A stretch of DNA of 63,953 bases, taken from Minisyncoccota bacterium (lineage in GTDB: Bacteria > Patescibacteriota > Minisyncoccia > Phycocordibacterales > CAINVO01). The DNA lies in contig JAQTMP010000001.1 of NCBI GenBank assembly GCA_028714275.1, forward strand, positions 1-63,953, given 5' to 3'. Below, one piece after another: positions 30,791-47,412 of this stretch. Position 1 is the first letter of the stretch; every line of letters starts with the position of its first letter. The position numbers were made by a program, and so were the translations under genes. The notes beneath the pieces are model-generated. The model ran no database searches. It was not told where the DNA came from and was given only the letters and a program-made list of their open reading frames with translations.

Positions 30791-31693
30791 TTACAACCTC
30801 CTTTCGATCGCTGCTTTATAGACGGCATCCCTGTCTGCCGAGCTGACTACATTCGCGATCTCGAGAACTCTCTCGACCTTCGCGATAGCATCCTCTCTCG
30901 ACAGACGTGGTGTCCGATGCAGACCTTCCCTCAAATACCACTGGCGTGGCGACAAGAGGGAGAAACCCGAATCAGCGACAAGCTTTCGCCATCCGTCTTC
31001 AGGTAGCACTTCCTCCGTCTCGTGACCGAGATAGTGCCGTCGGCTTTTTTCGGGAATCCACGAGGCCATTTGCGCATCGCAGTAGCGGAGTCCTTTGACA
31101 TCAAATTCATTGTATCCGAACTTAGCAAGCTCGGGCAAGAACGATAGGTCGGAGAGTTCCGCTATGTAAGGATGCGAGATGGGCAAAGCTCGAACACCTT
31201 CTTCTTTTGCCAACCGAAGGGTTTCAAGATGCTGTTGCACCGTGACCTTTTCGACTGGCGGATGGTTGCCGGTGATGCCGACGACCAAACAGAAGTTTTC
31301 AATTCGAGCAAGTCTCTTCATCACGTCTCGCTTTATCGGCCACTTCGTTACACACGTCACCAATTTTGCAATAGGCGATACCGTTTCGAAAAAGTGCCAG
31401 AGGAAACGATTGAGCTTCGGCCAGAATGGATCCGTCACTGCCGTAAAACCCACGAAGTCGCCCTCAAGGATCTCGAACGGGAAACGAAAGAATCGGTCCT
31501 GCTCCTCTGCCGAATCAACGATCCACGGAGTGACATTTATGAAGGTCGAGGCTCTGTTTACTCCCGCGATCGGGTTGGTGTTCCAGAGCTCTCGGCGTGC
31601 ATCGTGCTCCGTAATGAAGCAGTATTTGCACGCTACCGGACAGGCTGGTTGACCAGCCTCGAATCTTTGCCCACTACTTATTTTTGTTGGCAT
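30791..31693 (-). CDS. Radical SAM protein, SplB/COG1533-like
   Basis: CX3CX2C motif ACPVACKYCF near the N-terminus, then FTAVTDPFWP and CVTKWPIKRD, resembling the TDPYQP/TKS signature of that family. GC is visibly higher than in the flanks. Confidence 0.65.
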   Translation of the reverse strand: MPTKISSGQRFEAGQPACPVACKYCFITEHDARRELWNTNPIAGVNRASTFINVTPWIVDSAEEQDRFFRFPFEILEGDFVGFTAVTDPFWPKLNRFLWHFFETVSPIAKLVTCVTKWPIKRDVMKRLARIENFCLVVGITGNHPPVEKVTVQQHLETLRLAKEEGVRALPISHPYIAELSDLSFLPELAKFGYNEFDVKGLRYCDAQMASWIPEKSRRHYLGHETEEVLPEDGWRKLVADSGFSLLSPRQWYLREGLHRTPRLSREDAIAKVERVLEIANVVSSADRDAVYKAAIERRL

Positions 31694-32220
31694 TGGCTGA
31701 TCTCCTTTCTGATGGATTGGTTGATTTGTAGTTCGGGCAGTGTTCCATCTATTTCCACATACCGAAACTTTTGCTTGAGATGCGAGAGAAGCTCCGGCAA
31801 ACGATTCACTTCAACAGCGAGACGCGCTTTTGCTTTTGCCAACGCATCGCCTTGACGTTTACGACCGAGCACCCGCTCAATTGCTACTTCCTCCGAAATG
31901 ATCAGATTCACCACGAGGGTGGGATCTACCGGATGAAGCAGAAACTGGTTGAGATTTCTGGGATATCCGTCAAGGATCCAGTTGTCTTGAATGTCCGAAC
32001 CGAGAAGAACCTGGACAGCAAGGTCATCATCGAGCGGTTGCCAGATGTCACCATTGCGTTCGAAATACTCCGCGATTCTTTTTCCAAGATCGTCATCGGC
32101 TTTGAGATGCTTGCGCACCTCATCGCCAATAGAGATATGGGGCACACCGTAACATCGCTGCAACAGTATGCCTTGAGTGCCTTTGCCGGCACCCGGTAAT
32201 CCAATAAGAAGAATTCTCAT
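31678..32220 (-). CDS. Adenylate-kinase-family NMP kinase (second copy in window)
   Basis: MRILLIGLPGAGKGTQGILL...ISIGDEVRK...LDGYPRN. Its 3' end overlaps the radical SAM gene start by 16 nt. GC-shifted. Confidence 0.75.
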   Translation of the reverse strand: MRILLIGLPGAGKGTQGILLQRCYGVPHISIGDEVRKHLKADDDLGKRIAEYFERNGDIWQPLDDDLAVQVLLGSDIQDNWILDGYPRNLNQFLLHPVDPTLVVNLIISEEVAIERVLGRKRQGDALAKAKARLAVEVNRLPELLSHLKQKFRYVEIDGTLPELQINQSIRKEISQCQQK

Positions 32221-32263
32221 ATATACATTATAGAAGAGGGATTGAACCTTTCCTAACCATCTC

Positions 32264-33484
32264 CTAATTTTCGTAGTCGAGGATCCTCGACGGCGACATG
32301 CCGACCGTGACCCGAAACTCTGGCGGAAGCACGTCCTTAAACATTGCCAAGAAGCAGTAGCTGCACTTGAAACAATGTTCTTTGGCGCGATACTCGCTCC
32401 AGACCATCCATGAATTCACTCCGTAGAGCGAACCATGTCCGGACACGCCGTCAGGCATCTTGAAGCGAGGGTGGAGTCTGACTGCCGATGTCTCACCGGG
32501 TGCTATGTGTGGATCCGTCGCCAACATTCCGCCAGTTATAAATCTGGCAAGACTCATCTCTCCCCATGAAGGTGTTTGGCCATCATGAGTTCTGATGTTG
32601 ATATACGGCGTTCCGTATTTGGCAGGCGAAACCGGACAGTTCGTGCAACACAGGCTGCACTGACTTCTCACTTCGACATTACAGTTCTTGTAGCGTTCCG
32701 AGGCGGTATGGACTTCAACCTTGAAGCCGAGGTAACGAAGCAATTCGACAGAGCCCGGTAATGGTTGTGCAAACTGAGCTTGCCCCGCACAAGTGCTCTG
32801 AATGGGACATAGATCGCAACGCACGAACTTTGCAGCGGTGTGGTACGGATTCAAGCTTCTCTTTTTACCGAGAAGCGATGAAATCGCACACTGGGTTCTT
32901 ACCCAGTAAGGAATTTTCAACTCACCTGCAAGCTCGCGCATATATTCTGCGGTTGCCTGAGGAGTGAGTTTCAAAGTCTTCATCCACTGTTGACCGTCTG
33001 GCGCTGCAATGTGTTCCAGTCCGCTGGCGATCACGACATCATGACTTCCTCGGAAACCGGAAGAAATGATTGCGTTGCAACCAGCATCGACGCTTTTGCG
33101 GAAGATTCGCCCGATCGTTTCCTTGTCATCATTCACGGTATGAATGATCGGACGGACATACGATACCGACCATGCTCCGCACTCGCGTGCGGCTTGCAGT
33201 GTTCTGTAGCGATGTTCCGTTCCCATTGGCTCCATTTCTTTCGGGAGTTCCGAGATAGAAGCAAAGACAAAGAGGTTGAGATTTTCTGCCCAATGCGTCA
33301 GACGTTCACGCCACCATGGCGTGTCGAGGTTCCCTTTGGTAATGATGCCAACGGGACCGGTGTGCTTGTCTGCCACCAAGGCATCAAGCTTTGCCGCAGT
33401 CGAATCCCGAAGGATGACTGGATCTGCCAAGTTGTTTATACTCACGGGCAGATTACGCAGGAGTGTTCGATATGTTTCTTTCAC
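32264..33484 (-). CDS. Cys-rich radical-SAM-like protein lacking the N-terminal cluster motif
   Basis: NLADPVI and GIITKGNL echo the SplB-like barrel motifs, but there is no N-terminal CX3CX2C. The C-terminal half carries CDLCPIQSTC, CNVEVRSQCSLCCTNC and HCFKCSYCF. GC-shifted. Confidence 0.5.
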   Translation of the reverse strand: MKETYRTLLRNLPVSINNLADPVILRDSTAAKLDALVADKHTGPVGIITKGNLDTPWWRERLTHWAENLNLFVFASISELPKEMEPMGTEHRYRTLQAARECGAWSVSYVRPIIHTVNDDKETIGRIFRKSVDAGCNAIISSGFRGSHDVVIASGLEHIAAPDGQQWMKTLKLTPQATAEYMRELAGELKIPYWVRTQCAISSLLGKKRSLNPYHTAAKFVRCDLCPIQSTCAGQAQFAQPLPGSVELLRYLGFKVEVHTASERYKNCNVEVRSQCSLCCTNCPVSPAKYGTPYINIRTHDGQTPSWGEMSLARFITGGMLATDPHIAPGETSAVRLHPRFKMPDGVSGHGSLYGVNSWMVWSEYRAKEHCFKCSYCFLAMFKDVLPPEFRVTVGMSPSRILDYEN

Positions 33485-33655
33485 GGGAAAGTCCTTTCTG
33501 TTTGGGTTGTGTGACAGGATCTGAAAGTGGTTGTAATTTCAAAGAGCTTACAGTTATATCTGTAAAACAAAATTAACCGGGGCACATGCCCTTCGTAACG
33601 TAGAACTCTTCTGGTAGAATTGTAGTATATTTACTAACCATAATATAATTTACAT

Positions 33656-33916
33656 ATGAAAATAGAAAAGAAATTGAGAAAAGAATATTTTGAAAAGTTA
33701 CTTGCGGGAGAACAAAATTGTGATATGAAACTTGCTGATTTTGAATGCAATACTGGTGATGTCATTGTATACAAAGAATGGGATGGTGATACAAAAGAAT
33801 ACACAGGACGAACATTAGAGAAGACCGTCAGTGACATTGTACGAAGTCCTCGACCACGAACATGGTCAAATGAAGATATTGAAAAGTTTGGATTCATGAC
33901 AATTTATTTAAAATAA
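33656..33916 (+). CDS. DUF3850/ASCH-like small PUA-fold protein
   Basis: LRKEYFEKLLAGEQNCDMKLADFECNTGDVIVYKEWD...EYTGRTL matches the DUF3850 pattern as remembered. 86 aa. Confidence 0.55.
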   Translation: MKIEKKLRKEYFEKLLAGEQNCDMKLADFECNTGDVIVYKEWDGDTKEYTGRTLEKTVSDIVRSPRPRTWSNEDIEKFGFMTIYLK

Positions 33917-33974
33917 CTTTTAGCTTTCGTCCTTTCGGACTCATCAGTCGGGATACACATCCCGAGAGCAAAGG
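33917..33974 (-). ncRNA. Hammerhead self-cleaving ribozyme, type III topology
   Basis: The minus strand reads CCUUUGCUC|UCGGGAU-GUGU-AUCCCGA-CUGAUGA-GUCC-GAAA-GGAC-GAAA-GCUAAAAG. The complete conserved core is present: CUGAUGA, GAA, the A15.1-U16.1 pair, the G10.1-C11.1 pair and C17. Helix I has 7 bp and helix II 4 bp. The predicted cut is between 33966 and 33965. Confidence 0.8.
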
Positions 33975-34056
33975 ATGTATTTCTACATCCTCGCAAAGTT
34001 TATTTCTAAACTTCACTTGCGACTAAATCGCCAATGCCTTTCGGCTGAGATTTGGC
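33973..34056 (-). ncRNA. Three consecutive GAAA (GNRA) tetraloop hairpins directly 5' of the hammerhead
   Basis: Minus-strand hairpins are GGAUGUA-GAAA-UACAUCC (33973-33990), AAGUUUA-GAAA-UAAACUU (33996-34013), and GCC-GAAA-GGC nested in GCCAA/UUGGC (34030-34056). Confidence 0.55.
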
Positions 34057-34148
34057 ATATGCCGGGTTCTCTACAGGAGGGTTGATGTTCCTGTGACCCA
34101 ATCTATTTGCAGATGCAAGGAGATATATCCCTTAGTCCTCCCCGAAGG

Positions 34149-34472
34149 TTAGGCGACAGTGTCGCCGACCTTCAGGGTTTCGTGACCATGAACCATCGCG
34201 ACCACATGGGTAGCCATGGGAGGGACGAAGAACGCAACCGCGCTGAAGCGGTGCGCCAGGACATGGCCGAAGGCAGCTGCGACGGGAACCAGCAAAGGTC
34301 CCGTGACCTTGATGAGGCCACCGCCGGCGAGTTCGCCGTTGGTGTCCATCTCGGCCAAGCGCGCGACGGTGTCGCGAACCTTGGCGCTGGCGTCACCTTC
34401 GGCGGTATGCTTGAAGGTGATGACGTCCGCGTTGCGGGTGATCTCGACGGTGGGGGCTGTGGTAGTGTTCAT
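34149..34472 (-). CDS. Small protein resembling Csx3/Crn3 (cyclic-oligoadenylate ring nuclease family); tentative
   Basis: 107-aa ORF with strong GC3 bias inside a ~0.4-kb very GC-rich patch. GLIKVTGPLLVPVAAAFGHVLAHRFSAVAFFVPPMATHVVAMVHGHETLKVGDTV aligns by eye with my recollection of A. fulgidus Csx3 (VISGRGPIWLHCFLAHKYHHTPFVAVYDPRLGAVVVQSHSELREGDVI). Confidence 0.4.
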   Translation of the reverse strand: MNTTTAPTVEITRNADVITFKHTAEGDASAKVRDTVARLAEMDTNGELAGGGLIKVTGPLLVPVAAAFGHVLAHRFSAVAFFVPPMATHVVAMVHGHETLKVGDTVA

Positions 34473-34831
34473 ATTTATCAGAACACTACAAGGAAAACCT
34501 ATCCTACATTTCTAGAGCACAACATGTGCCCAAAGCTCCATTTCGGTAACTTTTTCGAAATACAGGACAAGTGTCTTGCAGTGTATTCTAGATATAACAC
34601 TTGTTACGTTCAGAATACACTACAAGACCTCCAGCAAACCCACCATCTCTACCTGCATCTGTTTTAATCAATGAACTCTTTATCTGATATAAGTATAGCA
34701 TATCCAGTTTATTTGTCAAGCACAATGCAATACTAAACCCTTATATATAAGCCTATTTTCACCACGATATTGACAATATCCAGTAAAGCCTATAATATAA
34801 GGCTATTATTGTTATACATATAAAACACTTT

Positions 34832-35599
34832 ATGAGCACCAAATTATTGGAACAAATTGGTTTAACAGGAGAGCAGGCACGGGTATACTCTTGCCTTGTC
34901 TCTTCAGGAACGCTACAGGCGAGAAAAATTGCCTCTGAAAGCAGGGTAAATCGTAGCCTTGTATACAAGATATTGAAGCAGCTTATTGAATTTGGCTTGG
35001 TTATAGAGAATGCTTCCCCCGGCTCTGTCAGTACCTTTACCGCACTCCATCCTTCCAAGCTCCACATTATCGTCAAAAGAAAAGAAGATGATCTCAAAAT
35101 TGCTGACCAGGCACTCCACGAAGCGGTGAGCAGCCTCGGCGCTCAGTTCAATCTTACGTGTGGGAAACCATCGGTACGATTCTATGAAGGACTCGATGGA
35201 ATAAGAATCTTGAACAAGGACATTATCCATAGTAAATCGGATATCAAATTGATACGCTCACCATTCGACAACAATACGGAGGAGCTCGATGCTAAGGCGA
35301 AGAAGCTTCTTGAGGAACGGGCGCAAGCAGGAATAAAGACCAGATTGATCGTTCCTATAAAAAATACCCCTTCTTCTATATCGCAGGAATGGGATAAAAA
35401 TAATCTGATCGAGCGTCGGCGCGTTCCACGAGAAGAACTCCTGAACTCTGCGCAGGTCATCGTCTATGCGAACAAAGTCGCCTTCACGTCTTTTAGCGAT
35501 TGCATGATTACAACCATCATAGAAGATAAAGGCATTGCTGATACCTGCTCGATGCTCTTTGAAGCATTGTGGGCCAAGTACGAATATAATAAAATATAA
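34832..35599 (+). CDS. TrmB-family transcriptional regulator
   Basis: The N-terminal winged helix LEQIGLTGEQARVYSCLVSSGTLQARKIASESRVNRSLVYKILKQLIEFGLV is typical of TrmB. Confidence 0.7.
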   Translation: MSTKLLEQIGLTGEQARVYSCLVSSGTLQARKIASESRVNRSLVYKILKQLIEFGLVIENASPGSVSTFTALHPSKLHIIVKRKEDDLKIADQALHEAVSSLGAQFNLTCGKPSVRFYEGLDGIRILNKDIIHSKSDIKLIRSPFDNNTEELDAKAKKLLEERAQAGIKTRLIVPIKNTPSSISQEWDKNNLIERRRVPREELLNSAQVIVYANKVAFTSFSDCMITTIIEDKGIADTCSMLFEALWAKYEYNKI

Positions 35600-35602
35600 A
35601 TT

Positions 35603-36193
35603 ATGAAATATACTCCTCTTATAGAAAAAGCTATACAGACCTCTGCTCATGCTCACAGAAAACAATACCGTAAAGGCAATCCAGACCTTCCTTATATCAG
35701 CCACCCATTCTCTGTCTTTGTTATTCTTTCAGAATATACCACCAATGAAAACGTGCTCATTGCAGGTCTGCTCCACGATATACTTGAGGATGCTGACCCT
35801 TCCGAATATTCTGAGGCTGCACTAACTAAAGATTTTGGAGAAAAAATAGTTTCTATCATCAAAGAAGTATCTGAGGAAAAAGACGGGGACCTCGAAGAAT
35901 CAGACGCAAAAAGTAATTGGGAGGAAAGAAAGATTGCCTACCTTGAGCATTTAAAGACGTCATCTCCGGAAGCACTTATGGTTTCTTCAGCGGACAAATT
36001 GCATAATATAGAAAACACACTGGTTGATTATAAAAAATCGGGATCAATGATATGGGAAAGATTTAACGCACCAAAAGAAAAGCAGATTTGGTTTTATAAA
36101 GAATTTAACAAAATAATCACAGGAAGACTAAGTAACGAGATCGCACAAAAATTTGCTACTATTGTTACTGAACTAGAGAAGGTTATTCAGTAG
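35603..36193 (+). CDS. RelA/SpoT-type HD-domain hydrolase (small alarmone hydrolase-like)
   Basis: AHAHRKQYRKG...PYISHPFSV...GLLHDILEDA motifs of the (p)ppGpp hydrolase HD domain. There is no synthetase domain. Confidence 0.75.
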   Translation: MKYTPLIEKAIQTSAHAHRKQYRKGNPDLPYISHPFSVFVILSEYTTNENVLIAGLLHDILEDADPSEYSEAALTKDFGEKIVSIIKEVSEEKDGDLEESDAKSNWEERKIAYLEHLKTSSPEALMVSSADKLHNIENTLVDYKKSGSMIWERFNAPKEKQIWFYKEFNKIITGRLSNEIAQKFATIVTELEKVIQ

Positions 36194-36980
36194 GAGAAGG
36201 CTCACCTGAAGACTCTTTTCCTAAGTTAATCACAAAACGTGAGAATGCTTGAATTGTCTCACGGGTTCCAAGAGACTCGCCTCTTTCAAGATGATGGACT
36301 GAGCCACGAAACACACCGTCTTCTCCGACACCCTCAACAAGATCTTCTGTTCCTTTGTAATCAGAATATACCTCTGCAATTACAGGTATACCCAGTGTGG
36401 TAAAAAATTCTTTCCATTGCCCCGGCAAACCGTTTTCAACAGATGTTTGACCAGAAAGAATGACGGCAGCGTTTGCCCCCGAGCATATCTTTTCATTCTC
36501 TGGAGAGATAACTCCTCCGATATCAATAAAATTAAGAGGTAAATTGATTTTTTTAACCGAATCCTCAATTCTTTTTGCAAACTCTGGAGTAAATTTTGAC
36601 TTATATTCCGCCTTGAGTTTTGCAGCCATTTCAGGATCAGCATTCATAGCTTCTTGAAACCAAGAACCTTCTCCGTCTGGACAAGCTGTTAATATGTATG
36701 GGTAAGGAGCACCTGGGGTACTTGCGATTGAGCTCTTAACACCCTGACGAAAGCATGATTTTCCTGAACGCTGTGGTCCTGCCAGTACTATCTTTTTTGC
36801 TTTCAACATCTCTTTTCCATCTGGTGTTTGCAAAAAATCGACCAAGCGAATACCTTCAACTTTTGATGTTGATTCTTTAAGCAAATCAAGTCCTTCTCTT
36901 CCTGTAAGGATTCTCTCGACAGCACCCTCTTGCTGTTGTTCCTGTAAATTTTGTAGTTGAGGTTGCTCTTGAGATTTCAT
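36183..36980 (-). CDS. P-loop NTPase of unknown family
   Basis: Walker A VLAGPQRSGKSCF, then ACPDGEGSW and FIDIGG. 265 aa with a Gln-rich N-terminus. Confidence 0.5.
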   Translation of the reverse strand: MKSQEQPQLQNLQEQQQEGAVERILTGREGLDLLKESTSKVEGIRLVDFLQTPDGKEMLKAKKIVLAGPQRSGKSCFRQGVKSSIASTPGAPYPYILTACPDGEGSWFQEAMNADPEMAAKLKAEYKSKFTPEFAKRIEDSVKKINLPLNFIDIGGVISPENEKICSGANAAVILSGQTSVENGLPGQWKEFFTTLGIPVIAEVYSDYKGTEDLVEGVGEDGVFRGSVHHLERGESLGTRETIQAFSRFVINLGKESSGEPSPTE

Positions 36981-37006
36981 GACTTAATAATAACATGAAC
37001 AATACG

Positions 37007-45715: not shown

Positions 45716-46153
45716 ATGCTAAAAAATATCCCTTATATTACCGACCCAGATTGCCTTTTTTGTAAAATCATTGAGGGCTCAATTTCATCATATAAAGTCT
45801 ACGAAGATGCTGACACTTATGCTTTTCTGGATATCAATCCAAACAATCACGGCCACACCCTAGTAGTGCCAAAAGATCATTTTGAAAATATTTATGGCAC
45901 CCCAGATGAAACTCTCTGTCGTACCATGATCACAGCCCGGAAAGTCGCCATCGCAGTCAAAAACGCCCTAAATGCAGACGGGGTAAACATTAACATCAAC
46001 AACGAAACGGCGGCTGGCCAAATAATTTTTCATACTCACATTCATATTATTCCTCGTTTCAATAATGACGGTTTCAAACACTGGGCCCAAAAAAGCTACC
46101 TCCCTGGCGAAGCCGAAAGCGTCTTAGAAAAGATAAAAGAAAAACTTAAATAA
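45716..46153 (+). CDS. HIT-family (histidine triad) nucleotide hydrolase
   Basis: CLFCKII...FLDINP.N.GHTLVVPK...HTHIHIIPR. Confidence 0.9.
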   Translation: MLKNIPYITDPDCLFCKIIEGSISSYKVYEDADTYAFLDINPNNHGHTLVVPKDHFENIYGTPDETLCRTMITARKVAIAVKNALNADGVNININNETAAGQIIFHTHIHIIPRFNNDGFKHWAQKSYLPGEAESVLEKIKEKLK

Positions 46154-46271
46154 AATTAAGAGCCCTTTCGGGAGCACGGATAAATCCTTGCTAGGATTTT
46201 CCTCGTGCTCGCTCCGTCGAGCCTCGCAAGTCTCCCTCAAGGGTTCTTAATTTTATTTAAGTTTTTCTTTT
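46135..46271. repeat. Hairpin element family D, copy 1 (31-bp stem with one G-T, ~75-nt conserved core)
   Basis: Arms are 46135-46165 and 46241-46271. The 5' arm contains the last 5 codons plus stop of the HIT gene, and the 3' arm reaches the pgk stop codon. The core recurs at 55551-55620. Confidence 0.85.
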
Positions 46272-47412
46272 ATTTTAGCGCTTCAATTCCGACTAACGTC
46301 TCATCCAAAAGATATTGCAACATCGCACCGCCGCCAGTAGAAATAAAACTAATTTTTGACTCAGCTTTTTCCCCGAGAGAGCTAATAGCGGCCAGAGTAT
46401 CTCCCCCGCCCACCACCGCTTCTAAAGAGCCGTCCGCATCTGAAATAATTTTAGCCAGCTCAATAGTCGGCTCCGTAAAACCAAGCTCATAATTTCCGAG
46501 TGGACCATTCCACAAAACACATTTTGATTCACCAATCATGGTCTGCAGCATAGACATGGTTTCGGGACCTGCATCCATAATGACGTCTGCGTCACCCACT
46601 TGGTCTGATTTCTTGGCTGAAACAGCCTGAGTATTTTTATCCTGCACGATGACATCTGTCGGGACCAAAAGCCTGGTGTCCGCTACTATATCTGTGACCG
46701 AAAAATCTCCACCTGAGACAAGCGATGCTCCGACATTCCATCTGCGCGCCTTAAAAAGATTGTTGGCCAAAGCTCCTCCCACAAAAACATGGTCAGCCAA
46801 CGTTAAAAACTTTTGAATCAAAGGGAGTTTGGTGTCAAACTTAGCGCCGCCTAAAATAAACAAAAAAGGATGAGGGGGGTGAAATATTTTTTTGAGATGG
46901 TTGATCTCGTCAGACAAAAGCAGCCCAGCATAGTGAGGTAAAAATTCGGGTACCCCCACTATCGAAGCATGTGATCGGTGTGAGACAGAAAAAGCATCAT
47001 TCACGTAGATGTCTGCAAAACCAGCTAGTTTTTTAGAAAATTCTCGATCATTCTTTTTTTCTTCTGGGTATTGGCGGATATTTTCGACGAGAATGATATC
47101 TCCGTCCGCCATAGAAGACATTTCGGCTAAACTTTCTTTGCTAAAAATATCTTCAACAAAAGTTAAAGGAAAAATCTTCATTAAATAATCATAGATAGGC
47201 CGCAGGGAATCTCCGCCCTTGCCTTCAATGTGACTAATGAGGATAATCTTTGCCTTTTGATTGCGTAAAAACTCAATAGTCGCAAGGCTTTTTTTGATTC
47301 GGGTGTCTCCAGTGATTTTACCGTTTTCGATGGGGACATTAAAATCTACCCGCACAAGTACTTTTTTACCGGCAAGGGATTCCAAGGTGGTGATGGATTT
47401 TGGGATGAGCAT
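46270..47412 (-). CDS. pgk: Phosphoglycerate kinase
   Basis: RVDFNVP, ISH.GKG, NDAFSVSHR and STGGGA motifs. Confidence 0.95.
   Translation of the reverse strand: MLIPKSITTLESLAGKKVLVRVDFNVPIENGKITGDTRIKKSLATIEFLRNQKAKIILISHIEGKGGDSLRPIYDYLMKIFPLTFVEDIFSKESLAEMSSMADGDIILVENIRQYPEEKKNDREFSKKLAGFADIYVNDAFSVSHRSHASIVGVPEFLPHYAGLLLSDEINHLKKIFHPPHPFLFILGGAKFDTKLPLIQKFLTLADHVFVGGALANNLFKARRWNVGASLVSGGDFSVTDIVADTRLLVPTDVIVQDKNTQAVSAKKSDQVGDADVIMDAGPETMSMLQTMIGESKCVLWNGPLGNYELGFTEPTIELAKIISDADGSLEAVVGGGDTLAAISSLGEKAESKISFISTGGGAMLQYLLDETLVGIEALK

Follow-up and report, generated by a model that had tools for sequence, protein, structure and literature searches.

A type III hammerhead ribozyme behind a Csx3-like gene in a Patescibacteria chromosome belongs to a large covarying family found between small-gene cassettes

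Type III hammerhead ribozymes (Rfam family RF00008) have been described in several systems. Those of the sobemovirus virusoids have helices I and II capped by loops and helix III open, and virusoids range in size from 220 to 390 nt (PMC4488728). Retrozymes and related tandem-hammerhead circular RNAs were described by de la Peña and Cervera (PMC5680766), while the Obelisks carry variant type III hammerheads that RF00008 models poorly and for which the authors used a model of their own (Zheludev et al., bioRxiv 10.1101/2024.01.20.576352). In prophage clusters, one gene or a short block of genes is enclosed by several hammerheads of the same strand; long transcripts were cleaved in vitro, and cutting into gene-length mRNAs was proposed (Perreault et al. 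2011, PMC3088659).

The window analysed here (the whole stretch of 63,953 nt from contig JAQTMP010000001.1) is part of a Pacebacteria (CPR) chromosome, a 64-kb DNA contig with housekeeping genes. A sequence-only reading had called the minus strand of 33917–33974 a type III hammerhead, and the segment reads exactly as it was quoted there. Judged on its sequence, it is a genuine type III hammerhead self-cleaving ribozyme, a further instance of an established class of element. Every invariant core residue is present (C3 U4 G5 A6 N7 G8 A9 and G12 A13 A14), A15.1 (33925) pairs with U16.1 (33967), position 17 is a non-G residue (C, 33966), and the 7-bp helix I and 4-bp helix II named in that call are perfect. 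Both the Rfam structure line and the minimum-free-energy fold close helices I and II with loops and leave helix III open to the flanks. The predicted cleavage site, between 33966 and 33965 on the minus strand, was likewise borne out by the sequence and the Rfam alignment.

RF00008 aligned to the segment over model positions 7–48 with a score of 32.9 bits (E = 2.8e-5 for 501 nt and 0.0036 when the whole window was scanned against all families), below the gathering score of 48.5 bits. A score under that threshold had been put forward as counter-evidence, but it proved uninformative because the same model gave 28.8–44.2 bits on 20 relatives, 20/20 of which also fell short; the shortfall stems from the longer loop 2 and longer helix III of the model, not from a fault in the sequence. 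Being invisible to Rfam at the curated threshold, the subclass is therefore missed by standard annotation. No Rfam family reached its gathering score in the whole window, and a whole-window scan by E-value returned, besides the hammerhead, only chance microRNA and snoRNA matches. A loose type III descriptor found one site in the real window and none in 600 dinucleotide-preserving shuffles; the hammerhead match is not due to chance. The family model R1 scored 73.8 bits at this sole copy in the window (next best match 15 bits), partly by construction because the window sequence is in its training set.

The pairing of UUUGCU with AGCUAAA proposed for helix III held only in part. Both strands are present and the three inner pairs are all Watson-Crick (A-U, G-C, then C-G), but a U·U mismatch (16.4/15.4) follows before two further A-U pairs, and the helix is weaker than implied. 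It has three consecutive base pairs against a family mode of five, a pair is formed at the mismatched site in 111/113 relatives (98%), and its strength lies in the family's lowest few percent; cleavage activity may be reduced by so poor a helix III. In an 88-nt context, the minimum-free-energy fold comprises an upstream hairpin and the hammerhead three-way junction with its 3-bp helix III. The thermodynamic probability of the constrained three-helix fold did not separate good from poor members and was not used as an activity predictor. The limits first given for the element contain the ribozyme, but their first bases, CC (33974–33973), are part of the upstream hairpin at 33973–33990.

With a pattern search in which the stems were left free and the loops fixed as GUGU and GAAA, the same design was retrieved from at least 120 contigs each among metagenomes and genomes (the genome contigs being mostly Patescibacteria) and from 28 viral ones. 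Fast cleavage at cellular Mg depends on a tertiary contact of loop 1 with loop 2. The GUGU and GAAA loops of the window are those of the family, but these were preset by the search pattern; among hammerheads that the loose descriptor detected without that pattern, most have stems and loops of the same size. Hundreds of near-identical copies separate small-gene cassettes in CPR bacteria and phages. Over 113 distinct sequences, pairing was 99.6% in helix I and 100% in helix II; in helix III the four inner pairs were each formed in 97–99%. All three helices covary across the family: the four outer pairs of helix I take all Watson-Crick types, the two middle pairs of helix II vary among UA, CG, AU and GC while remaining 100% paired, and 13 of 19 pairs changed on both sides (603 cells versus 204 in shuffles). 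The covariation score of 0.64, compared with 0.05–0.13 in slid controls, was reached by 0/500 shuffles. Position 17 is occupied by C (144 family members), U (51), A (34) or, once, G (C/U/A in 229/230), and position 16.1 is U in 228/230.

A co-oriented ORF ends no more than 150 nt upstream of 80% of the family hammerheads and another starts no more than 150 nt downstream of 56%; where the strand of the downstream ORF is clear, 103 neighbours are co-oriented versus 27 convergent, a roughly fourfold excess. The 50 nt upstream folded with a mean energy of −13.6 kcal/mol (n = 261); a coding control gave −11.6 and shuffles gave −7.8. Two to four hammerheads were present in 58 loci, nearly always on one strand and with one forward ORF per unit.

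As had been proposed, the window copy is placed between a Csx3-like gene and a convergent DUF3850 gene (Table 1). It begins 174 nt after the stop of the former and directly abuts the stop codon of the latter, an abutment also found in two relatives, L007 and L236. The Csx3-like label was upheld as well: the 107-aa protein matched positions 8–98 of the PADLOC Csx3-AAA model (E 6.4e-11), the top five PDB matches of a profile were all AF_1864 Csx3 (E 0.045–0.16), and PF09620 was matched by 8/13 relatives, though not by the window protein alone. GC content of this ORF is 60–68%, versus ~44% for the window. The 265-aa protein gave uninformative results against PDB, Pfam and NCBIfam and was resolved by PADLOC as the AAA half; its gene adjoins Csx3 in five other loci (L010, L019, L083, L120 and L175) and is flanked by hammerheads in L236.

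Table 1. Features of the ribozyme and the surrounding Csx3 operon (window coordinates)
Feature	Position	Strand	Evidence
Type III hammerhead ribozyme	33917..33974 (functional unit ~33919–33972)	−	sequence, RF00008, family model R1, shuffles
Predicted scissile bond, 3′ of C17 (33966) / 5′ of U1.1 (33965)	33965..33966	−	sequence and Rfam alignment
Helix I, 7 bp: UCGGGAU 33965–33959, loop GUGU 33958–33955, AUCCCGA 33954–33948	33948..33965	−	
Catalytic core C3–A9, CUGAUGA	33941..33947	−	sequence, RF00008 alignment
Helix II, GUCC-GAAA-GGAC, 4 bp, GAAA loop, including G10.1-C11.1 pair	33929..33940	−	sequence
Core G12–A14 (GAA) 33928–33926 and helix III 3′ strand AGCUAAA, starting at A15.1 (33925), then GCUAAA 33924–33919	33919..33928	−	
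Helix III 5′ strand UUUGCU	33967..33972	−	sequence
Hairpin GGAUGUA-GAAA-UACAUCC directly 5′ of ribozyme	33973..33990	−	folds
Second GAAA-loop hairpin, AAGUUUA-GAAA-UAAACUU, in structured 3′ UTR	33996..34013	−	fold
Csx3 domain of split Csx3-AAA, GC-rich 107-aa ORF	34149..34472	−	PADLOC, PDB profile, PF09620 in relatives
5′ UTR leader hairpin, 56 nt	34573..34628	−	inverted repeat I1, 27-nt arms, 81% complementary
Leader motif GTTCATTGA, ~+9 to +18 of transcript	34668..34676	−	comparison of syntenic loci
Promoter of Csx3-hammerhead transcript: TTGACA, 16 nt, TATACT, TG extension	34692..34719	−	11/12 consensus matches
AAA half of split Csx3-AAA, 265-aa P-loop protein	36183..36980	−	PADLOC PDLC01045 positions 87–285, E 1.6e-50
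Convergent DUF3850 gene, stop codon 33914–33916 abutting ribozyme	33656..33916	+	PF12961, E 1.5e-8
Divergent TrmB-like HTH regulator	34832..35599	+	PF01978, E 1.1e-12

The one-gene Csx3 operon begins at a conserved promoter, oriented divergently to the TrmB-like gene, and ends with the ribozyme; TrmB-like homologues were present in 42/278 hammerhead loci. The promoter is kept as cTTGACA-N17-TGCTATACT in most of eight syntenic loci and the leader motif in 7/8, L001 having a one-base variant (GTTCCTTGA). In relatives this motif also lies 3′ of internal hammerheads; it followed 42% of hammerheads in TrmB-linked genome loci and 13% in others (background 0.27%). Two other readings of GTTCWTTRA, as a −35 box or an integron core site, were dropped: it lies downstream of the −10 box in the window and seven relatives, and as a recurrent motif it does not fit the GTTRRRY / RYYYAAC core of integron attC sites. 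A hairpin ends 0–4 nt before helix III in 9/9 Csx3-linked loci, and the one at 33973–33990 would be the 3′-terminal stem-loop of the upstream cleavage product. A 271-nt fold that includes the structured 3′ UTR gave z = −3.69. No intrinsic terminator (GC-rich hairpin with U-tract) was predicted at 33900–34150 on either strand, tRNA and tandem repeat (CRISPR array) scans of the window were negative, and megablast of 31000–37000 against plasmid and phage collections gave no match.

In the window and eight relatives, the hammerhead lies 59–225 nt after the Csx3-like gene, with Csx3 proteins only 40–90% identical. One to three ribozymes occur at this site in relatives, dividing exchangeable cassettes, and further co-oriented cassettes follow the equivalent site. 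Six loci (L001–L006) have a Csx3 protein 87% identical and no hammerhead, so Csx3 expression does not require it. The window and L007 differ by exactly one unit of 386 nt, which runs from hammerhead to hammerhead in L007 and is absent from the window: the 5′ flank and helices I and II of the window copy match the first L007 ribozyme (HHR1) and its 3′ flank matches the second (HHR2), the flanks being 11–16% diverged. The L007 unit, with its two ribozymes, encodes a conserved 60-aa protein and has 65% of its bases paired in local hairpins; no viroid-like rod was seen in this or other hammerhead-bounded units, which form strings of local hairpins, and the window holds a single ribozyme. L112 also has the 60-aa-protein cassette, complete with 3′ hairpin and hammerhead, at 71% nucleotide identity, whereas the TrmB next to it shows just 33% identity and another gene comes first. 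Synteny is lost at the first hammerhead in several lineages. L236, the closest syntenic genome, has a mutated core (GAAA to GCAA, A13 lost) in the ribozyme abutting DUF3850, and the site is therefore not under strong selection.

Sequence, secondary structure, a large covarying family and a conserved locus architecture are established for this element, and we consider it probable that the hammerhead lies in the 3′ UTR of the transcript that starts at the 34719–34692 promoter and encodes the Csx3 half, as a terminal processing site. In the nascent RNA, helices I and II and the short helix III would fold, helix III probably stacking on the hairpin at 33973–33990, and the RNA would cut itself after C17 (33966). 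The upstream product would be the Csx3 mRNA, ending in the stem-loop and then UUUGCUC with a 2′,3′-cyclic phosphate, so that its 3′ end would be both protected and defined; the downstream product would start with a 5′-OH and contain the folded ribozyme body. That cleavage would set the 3′ end of the upstream mRNA had been suggested from the start, and the suggestion fits the comparative data, namely the invariable upstream hairpin of Csx3-linked loci and the predominance of co-oriented ORFs upstream. In relatives, where the element lies between successive small-gene cassettes of one operon, cleavage would uncouple each cistron, and each downstream cassette would gain a structured 5′ end, followed by the GTTCWTTRA-plus-hairpin leader of the primary transcript. 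This between-cistron role does not literally apply in this genome because no co-oriented gene lies downstream. With just one cassette in the array, what lies downstream of the cut would be no more than antisense RNA to DUF3850, which is probably short-lived, and the ribozyme would act as the terminal processing site of the operon.

The same cleavage had also been credited with blocking antisense read-through into DUF3850, and this part of the sequence-only reading found no support: cleavage does not itself terminate transcription, RNA polymerase continues, and no terminator is predicted on that strand. On this reading, cleavage would serve mainly to keep the Csx3 transcript from forming an antisense RNA to DUF3850; one route would be attack at the 5′-OH end by a 5′-3′ exonuclease that degrades the downstream RNA and perhaps dislodges the polymerase. 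In Bacillus, RNase J1 degrades the 5′-OH product left by glmS ribozyme cleavage, and both the three loci where the hammerhead abuts the DUF3850 stop and the lack of a predicted intrinsic terminator on the Csx3 strand speak for such control. We nevertheless regard it as quite improbable, given that DUF3850 occurs in only four hammerhead loci (the fetched L007, L093 and L236 plus the window), that the L236 copy at DUF3850 is degenerate, that sites in relatives precede co-oriented cassettes and downstream neighbours across the family are mainly co-oriented, and that the terminal hammerhead of L240 is followed by a normal terminator. A different view makes the window copy a solo relic, without a role and with poor or no cleavage, left after loss of one or more hammerhead-bounded cassettes between Csx3 and DUF3850. 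The missing 386-nt unit, the helix III strands of apparently different origin that pair badly, with U·U at a position otherwise 98% paired, the loss of A13 in the terminal hammerhead of L236 and the absence of a co-oriented gene downstream all favour it. Yet neither the catalytic core nor helix I or II has a defect despite the divergence of the flanks, the inner helix III pairs are intact, the junction is the minimum-free-energy fold and the protective upstream hairpin is preserved; moreover, two genomes do not tell loss here from gain in L007. On this evidence a relic seems unlikely.

The indel of one unit that separates the window from L007 falls in register with the ribozyme, as would be expected if the hammerhead and the GTTCWTTRA-hairpin leader marked the ends of exchangeable cassettes that move by recombination at the ribozyme sequence or as excised, possibly circular, RNA copies, the window copy being the attachment point of a minimal array. 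The L112 cassette beside a dissimilar TrmB and the synteny breaks at first hammerheads point the same way, and the window ribozyme was rejected as a simple homologous-recombination product of HHR1 and HHR2 because its helix II (GUCC/GGAC) is that of HHR1 while its 3′ flank is that of HHR2; a crossover would have to fall within the 5-nt CGAAA or at position 15.3/15.4. Against this, an unsystematic look identified no recombinase or reverse transcriptase beside the arrays, the units lack viroid-like rods, the leader motif falls outside the integron GTTRRRY core, and the indel can be explained by ordinary recombination between ~45-nt repeats with later point mutation over 11–16% divergence; for clustered bacterial hammerheads, circular or spliced products were sought and none found (Perreault et al., PMC3088659). 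As a mobile boundary the element is improbable. A broader proposal, which we hold to be distinctly unlikely, is an undescribed modular cassette system of CPR bacteria in which a TrmB-controlled promoter drives an array and the hammerhead is one cassette boundary. The first gene would be ring-nuclease-like, for cyclic oligoadenylates (Csx3, or STIV-B116/Csx16-like), later cassettes would consist of GTTCWTTRA leader, hairpin, small ORF, 3′ hairpin and hammerhead, and exchange between genomes would take place at the ribozyme, via recombination or excised RNA, with the window as a minimal array. Finally, a 40-aa ORF (33894–34016) covers the site, and its reverse complement gives hairpins past the DUF3850 stop codon, so that a chance match, a coding segment or a DUF3850 terminator had to be weighed. 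These readings are effectively refuted by the absence of matches in 600 shuffles, by compensatory covariation in all helices over hundreds of loci with no conserved reading frame, and by hairpins without a U-tract and no predicted terminator on either strand.

Terminal processing of the Csx3 transcript thus remains our preferred reading. The ribozyme itself is one more member of a well-known class, and the added value lies in its context. Genomes of Patescibacteria very commonly contain precisely this type III design, and no paper linking hammerheads to Patescibacteria was found in the literature searched. Across the loci compared, the ribozymes punctuate variable small-gene operons beside a TrmB-like regulator in these bacteria; such operons often begin with a ring-nuclease-like gene (Csx3 or B116-like). 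If active, the element would offer a tractable case for the role of self-cleaving ribozymes in bacterial operons, a question dating from 2011, and the operon layout that recurs may be a sign that CPR bacteria have an uncharacterised module for nucleotide signalling or anti-defence.

Set beside the known systems, the window copy shares its core and topology with the sobemovirus virusoid hammerheads. Two IMG/VR records, L260 and L263 (366 and 377 nt), match the same search pattern and have GGAUGUGUAUCC in common at the helix I tip, as well as GUCC-RAAA-GGAC in helix II; their lengths fit those of the virusoids of velvet tobacco mottle virus and Solanum nodiflorum mottle virus. Unlike the virusoid ribozymes, the window copy is single and lies in bacterial chromosomal DNA, inside an mRNA rather than a circular RNA replicon, with a shorter helix III and a score under the RF00008 gathering score. 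The Obelisk hammerheads are microbiome-associated type III variants likewise badly modelled by RF00008, and four pattern-matched contigs (L016, L017, L024 and L030) are of Obelisk-like size (1.1–2 kb); L016, L017 and L030 have hammerheads on both strands, and L030 contains a 1158-nt repeat. Obelisks, however, are ~1-kb circular RNAs encoding Oblin proteins, whereas the window is bacterial DNA with housekeeping genes. As in retrozymes and tandem-hammerhead circular RNAs, L007 has two same-strand type III hammerheads, and release and ligation of its 386-nt unit would be possible in principle, but that unit is protein-coding and not rod-like, and the window has one hammerhead. The prophage layout of Perreault et al. 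recurs in fetched phage contigs (e.g. L252), with ribozymes ~24 nt before start codons. The window locus differs from those clusters in lying on a CPR chromosome beside a TrmB-like regulator with no obvious prophage, and in being of type III whereas type II predominates in bacteria; in addition, each CPR cassette has a conserved GTTCWTTRA leader, which is absent from the viral copies (0/15).

Reverse complementing of positions 33917–33974 returned the minus-strand sequence of the sequence-only reading unchanged (CCUUUGCUC-UCGGGAU-GUGU-AUCCCGA-CUGAUGA-GUCC-GAAA-GGAC-GAAA-GCUAAAAG), and every invariant hammerhead position it had claimed was found there, with C17 at 33966 placing the predicted scissile bond between 33966 and 33965. 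The Rfam type III model RF00008 aligned over model positions 7–48 of 54 with 32.9 bits (E = 2.8e-5 on 501 nt; E = 0.0036 when all 4227 families were run over the whole window), and no Rfam family reached its own gathering score anywhere in the window. A sub-gathering score had been proposed as counting against the ribozyme; it proved uninformative, since all 20 relative hammerheads scored on RF00008 (28.8–44.2 bits) also fell below its 48.5-bit gathering score, so that the threshold has no discriminating power here. For Obelisk hammerheads, Zheludev et al. described the same shortcoming of RF00008 and turned to a model of their own (bioRxiv 10.1101/2024.01.20.576352). A deliberately loose type III descriptor identified one site in the window versus none in 600 dinucleotide-preserving shuffles; the hammerhead is a real feature and no chance match. 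On a covariance model built from the family alignment, with the window sequence among its training sequences, the window copy scored 73.8 bits (family range 67–77), and this model found no second copy in the window.

Public collections were searched with the pattern GATGNGTATCNNNNCTGATGAGNNCNAAAGNNCGAAA, in which core and loops are fixed and stems are free, producing matches in 28 IMG/VR contigs and in at least 120 contigs each from metagenomes and from GTDB genomes. Among the genome matches listed, 59 of 80 carried Patescibacteria/CPR labels and a further 11 were unclassified bacteria; the former included Saccharibacteria, Paceibacterota, Kaiser-, Uhr-, Shapiro-, Nomura- and Gracilibacteria, and others. 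The pattern itself dictated the invariant columns, which carry no information; stem columns were free, so that covariation within them is informative. Over 113 distinct sequences, pairing amounted to 99.6% in helix I, 100% in helix II and, for the four inner pairs of helix III taken singly, 97–99%; every Watson-Crick pair type was seen at free stem positions, and 603 cells were changed on both sides, versus 204 in shuffles. The observed covariation score was reached by none of 500 shuffles and dropped from 0.64 to 0.05–0.13 when partners were slid by 1–3 columns.

A further type III variant (helix I UCCGCC-UAAG-GGCGGA, helix II long and imperfect) was seen at ~610–690 on the minus strand of L112, one of the fetched relative loci. 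It was missed by both descriptor and search pattern, and the family is therefore broader than the pattern used. Several short metagenome contigs (L016, L017 and L024, 1.1–1.3 kb; L030, 2022 nt) resembled Obelisk-type circular RNAs that had been assembled from community data, with hammerheads on both strands in L016, L017 and L030 and a 1158-nt direct repeat in L030. Two virusoid-sized IMG/VR contigs (L260, 366 nt; L263, 377 nt) match the window hammerhead in helix I tip and helix II; their lengths suggest that they are probably the virusoids of velvet tobacco mottle and Solanum nodiflorum mottle.

The window is a contig of 63,953 bp from a Candidatus Pacebacteria metagenome-assembled genome, and its gene content (SecY, EF-Tu, EF-G, ComEC, RecJ, type IV pilus genes) identifies it as chromosome, not phage. 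The earlier call of a 'Csx3-like' ORF was supported by PADLOC, by the profile of the 107-aa family, whose top five PDB matches were all AF_1864 Csx3, and by PF09620, matched by 8 of 13 family members. Judged from their sequences, the 107-aa and 265-aa genes are a split Csx3-AAA, the PADLOC model being a single fused protein. In the window the two halves are separated by genes of TrmB-like and HD (RelA/SpoT-type) kind; the halves are adjacent in five relatives (L010, L019, L083, L120 and L175). No CRISPR array was found within the window. The Csx3 ORF forms a sharp GC island (34149–34480; 60–68% versus 30–45% around it) with edges coinciding exactly with the ORF, which points to recent acquisition or else to a strong constraint on composition from its Ala/Gly/Val-rich sequence. 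A separate palindromic stretch at 46129–46277, scoring 36 and 32 bits on its two strands with a plant microRNA precursor model (threshold 211), is probably an intergenic hairpin or long inverted repeat.

Features located in the window and in two relative loci
Feature	Sequence	Positions	Strand	Details
Hairpin	window	33973–33990	−	directly 5′ of window ribozyme
Csx3 domain, 107-aa ORF	window	34149–34472	−	PADLOC Csx3-AAA model positions 8–98, E 6.4e-11
Leader motif	window	34668–34676	−	window copy of (A)GTTCWTTRA(AAA)
Promoter of Csx3 gene	window	34719–34692	−	TTGACA-16-TATACT; divergent from TrmB-like regulator
AAA half, 265-aa protein	window	36183–36980	−	PADLOC Csx3-AAA model positions 87–285, E 1.6e-50
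60-aa basic protein	L007	1083–1265	+	hammerhead-flanked in both loci; ~65% identity
60-aa basic protein	L112	348–530	−	
114-aa STIV-B116-like/Csx16-like protein	L112	711–1055	−	PF08960 E 7e-5; PADLOC Csx16 E 3.8e-5

Relative loci were fetched in two ways, via Csx3 homologues and via the hammerhead pattern. Their shared order runs from an AAA protein gene through an HD-domain gene and a TrmB-like gene, both on the opposite strand, a divergent promoter, a Csx3-like gene with the hammerhead behind it, variable cassettes and a convergent DUF3850 gene to the gene for a 406-aa protein. The promoter TTGAC...TGCTATACT is kept in all eight syntenic loci (full TTGACA box in seven), and the leader motif AGTTCWTTRA, ~15 nt past the −10 box and followed by a long hairpin, fits seven of the eight; L001 carries the one-base variant GTTCCTTGA. 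Despite Csx3 identities of only 40–90%, a hammerhead lies 59–225 nt downstream of the Csx3-like gene in the window and eight relatives, and a hairpin ends 0–4 nt 5′ of helix III in 9/9 Csx3-linked loci. Ribozyme number varies: the window has one, L007/L008 have two (386 nt apart, flanking the 60-aa ORF), L236 has three (behind the Csx3-like gene, behind an AAA-protein cassette, and abutting DUF3850) and L001–L006 have none, with another gene downstream. L236 shares 90% identity with the window in TrmB and 94% in the 406-aa protein.

Two to four hammerheads were present in 58 of the 279 sequences searched (278 fetched loci and the window), almost always on one strand, at a spacing of 285–4041 nt and with one forward ORF per unit. 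A co-oriented ORF ended ≤150 nt upstream of 80% of hammerheads and started ≤150 nt downstream of 56%, and the 50 nt upstream showed more structure than either coding controls or shuffles. TrmB-like genes occurred in 42 of the 278 fetched loci (23 of 120 genome loci fetched). The motif [GA]TTC[TA]TT[GAT]A followed 42% of hammerheads in TrmB-linked genome loci, 13% of those in other genome loci and 0/15 viral hammerheads (background 0.27% per 20-nt window). The motif (A)GTTCWTTRA(AAA), ~60-fold over background, is also found with a long hairpin just behind internal hammerheads (L007, L009, L236, L155 and others), and may serve as an RNA leader or as an operator recognised by the TrmB-like protein. 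A structured element ~60–130 nt past the hammerhead (...CTTCGTGAGTAGCAYAGTGGATGTCTCAARAGAGATTTCYAGTRTGCTACTCATGTCGAGGAGC...) is conserved in the CPR loci L067, L115, L130 and L155, with no Rfam match in L155, the sole locus scanned of the four.

Where others have Csx3, the first gene of L112 encodes the STIV-B116-like/Csx16-like protein, from a family which we take to be the viral ring nuclease AcrIII-1/Crn2. A B116-like first gene was seen in a second lineage of TrmB-linked arrays (L112, also L177, L053, L076/L198, L092 and L095). Among loci fetched by the hammerhead pattern only, B116-like ORFs occurred in 6 distinct loci and Csx3-like ORFs in 8. The two families are unrelated, both are type III CRISPR accessory genes, and they occupy the same slot before hairpin and hammerhead.

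With sequence, structure, family and architecture of the hammerhead established, the best-supported role of the window ribozyme is that of a co-transcriptional processing site. The nascent RNA would cleave itself, the 5′ hairpin presumably stacking on the ribozyme, and the upstream product would be an mRNA with a terminal stem-loop and a 2′,3′-cyclic phosphate; in relatives, the downstream product would open with the folded ribozyme, then the primary transcript's own leader. As the window array is one cassette, cleavage would trim the Csx3 mRNA and free an RNA antisense to DUF3850. The earlier suggestion that it blocks antisense read-through into DUF3850 is unsupported, because cleavage does not halt the polymerase, the DUF3850-abutting third copy in L236 is decaying (GAAA to GCAA, A13C) and convergent downstream neighbours are a minority (27 versus 103 co-oriented in strand-clear cases). 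A serious rival, which we nevertheless consider unlikely, holds that the window copy is a relic.

In helix III, the pairing proposed between UUUGCU and AGCUAAA stands for A-U, G-C and C-G, and is then interrupted by a U·U mismatch before two A-U pairs. The CC that opens the quoted sequence is part of the adjoining hairpin instead of the ribozyme. Helix III usually has 4–6 consecutive bp in the family (mode 5) and 3 in the window, a length matched or undercut in only 8 of 230 relatives, and the pair lost to the mismatch is formed in 111 of 113. The minimum free energy fold of an 88-nt context comprised the upstream hairpin and the hammerhead three-way junction with a 3-bp helix III. With the core intact, activity is plausible and may be reduced.

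A dedicated mechanism of cassette mobility is possible, unproven and, in our estimate, somewhat less probable still than a relic. L112 carries another copy of the 60-aa L007 cassette, with 71% nucleotide identity and a 3′ hairpin and hammerhead flank ~93% identical by eye, the L112 TrmB being only 33% identical. The protein of this cassette (ILKYKSKRS.FDHK...RRCLKKADDE.GA.C.G.YWT) had no match in Pfam or PADLOC, and the RNA unit carrying the gene is unusually structured (z = −7). The window aligns to L007 1–1005 and again to 1347–1456, so that the two differ by exactly one hammerhead-to-hammerhead unit, through loss in the window or gain in L007. The window copy agrees with the first L007 hammerhead (HHR1) in 5′ flank and helices I and II, and with the second (HHR2) in 3′ flank; the window sequence is not obtained by a simple crossover within the longest stretch in which HHR1 and HHR2 are identical.

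A search of the literature library used found no paper linking hammerheads functionally to Patescibacteria/CPR or Csx3. What merits reporting is the CPR abundance, the architecture of TrmB and leader motif, and the association with ring-nuclease-like genes. These CPR findings still extend a picture already established for clustered hammerheads in bacteria and phages. Clustered prophage hammerheads cleave in vitro (Perreault et al., PMC3088659), and the processing role favoured here for the window ribozyme agrees with the proposal of those authors.
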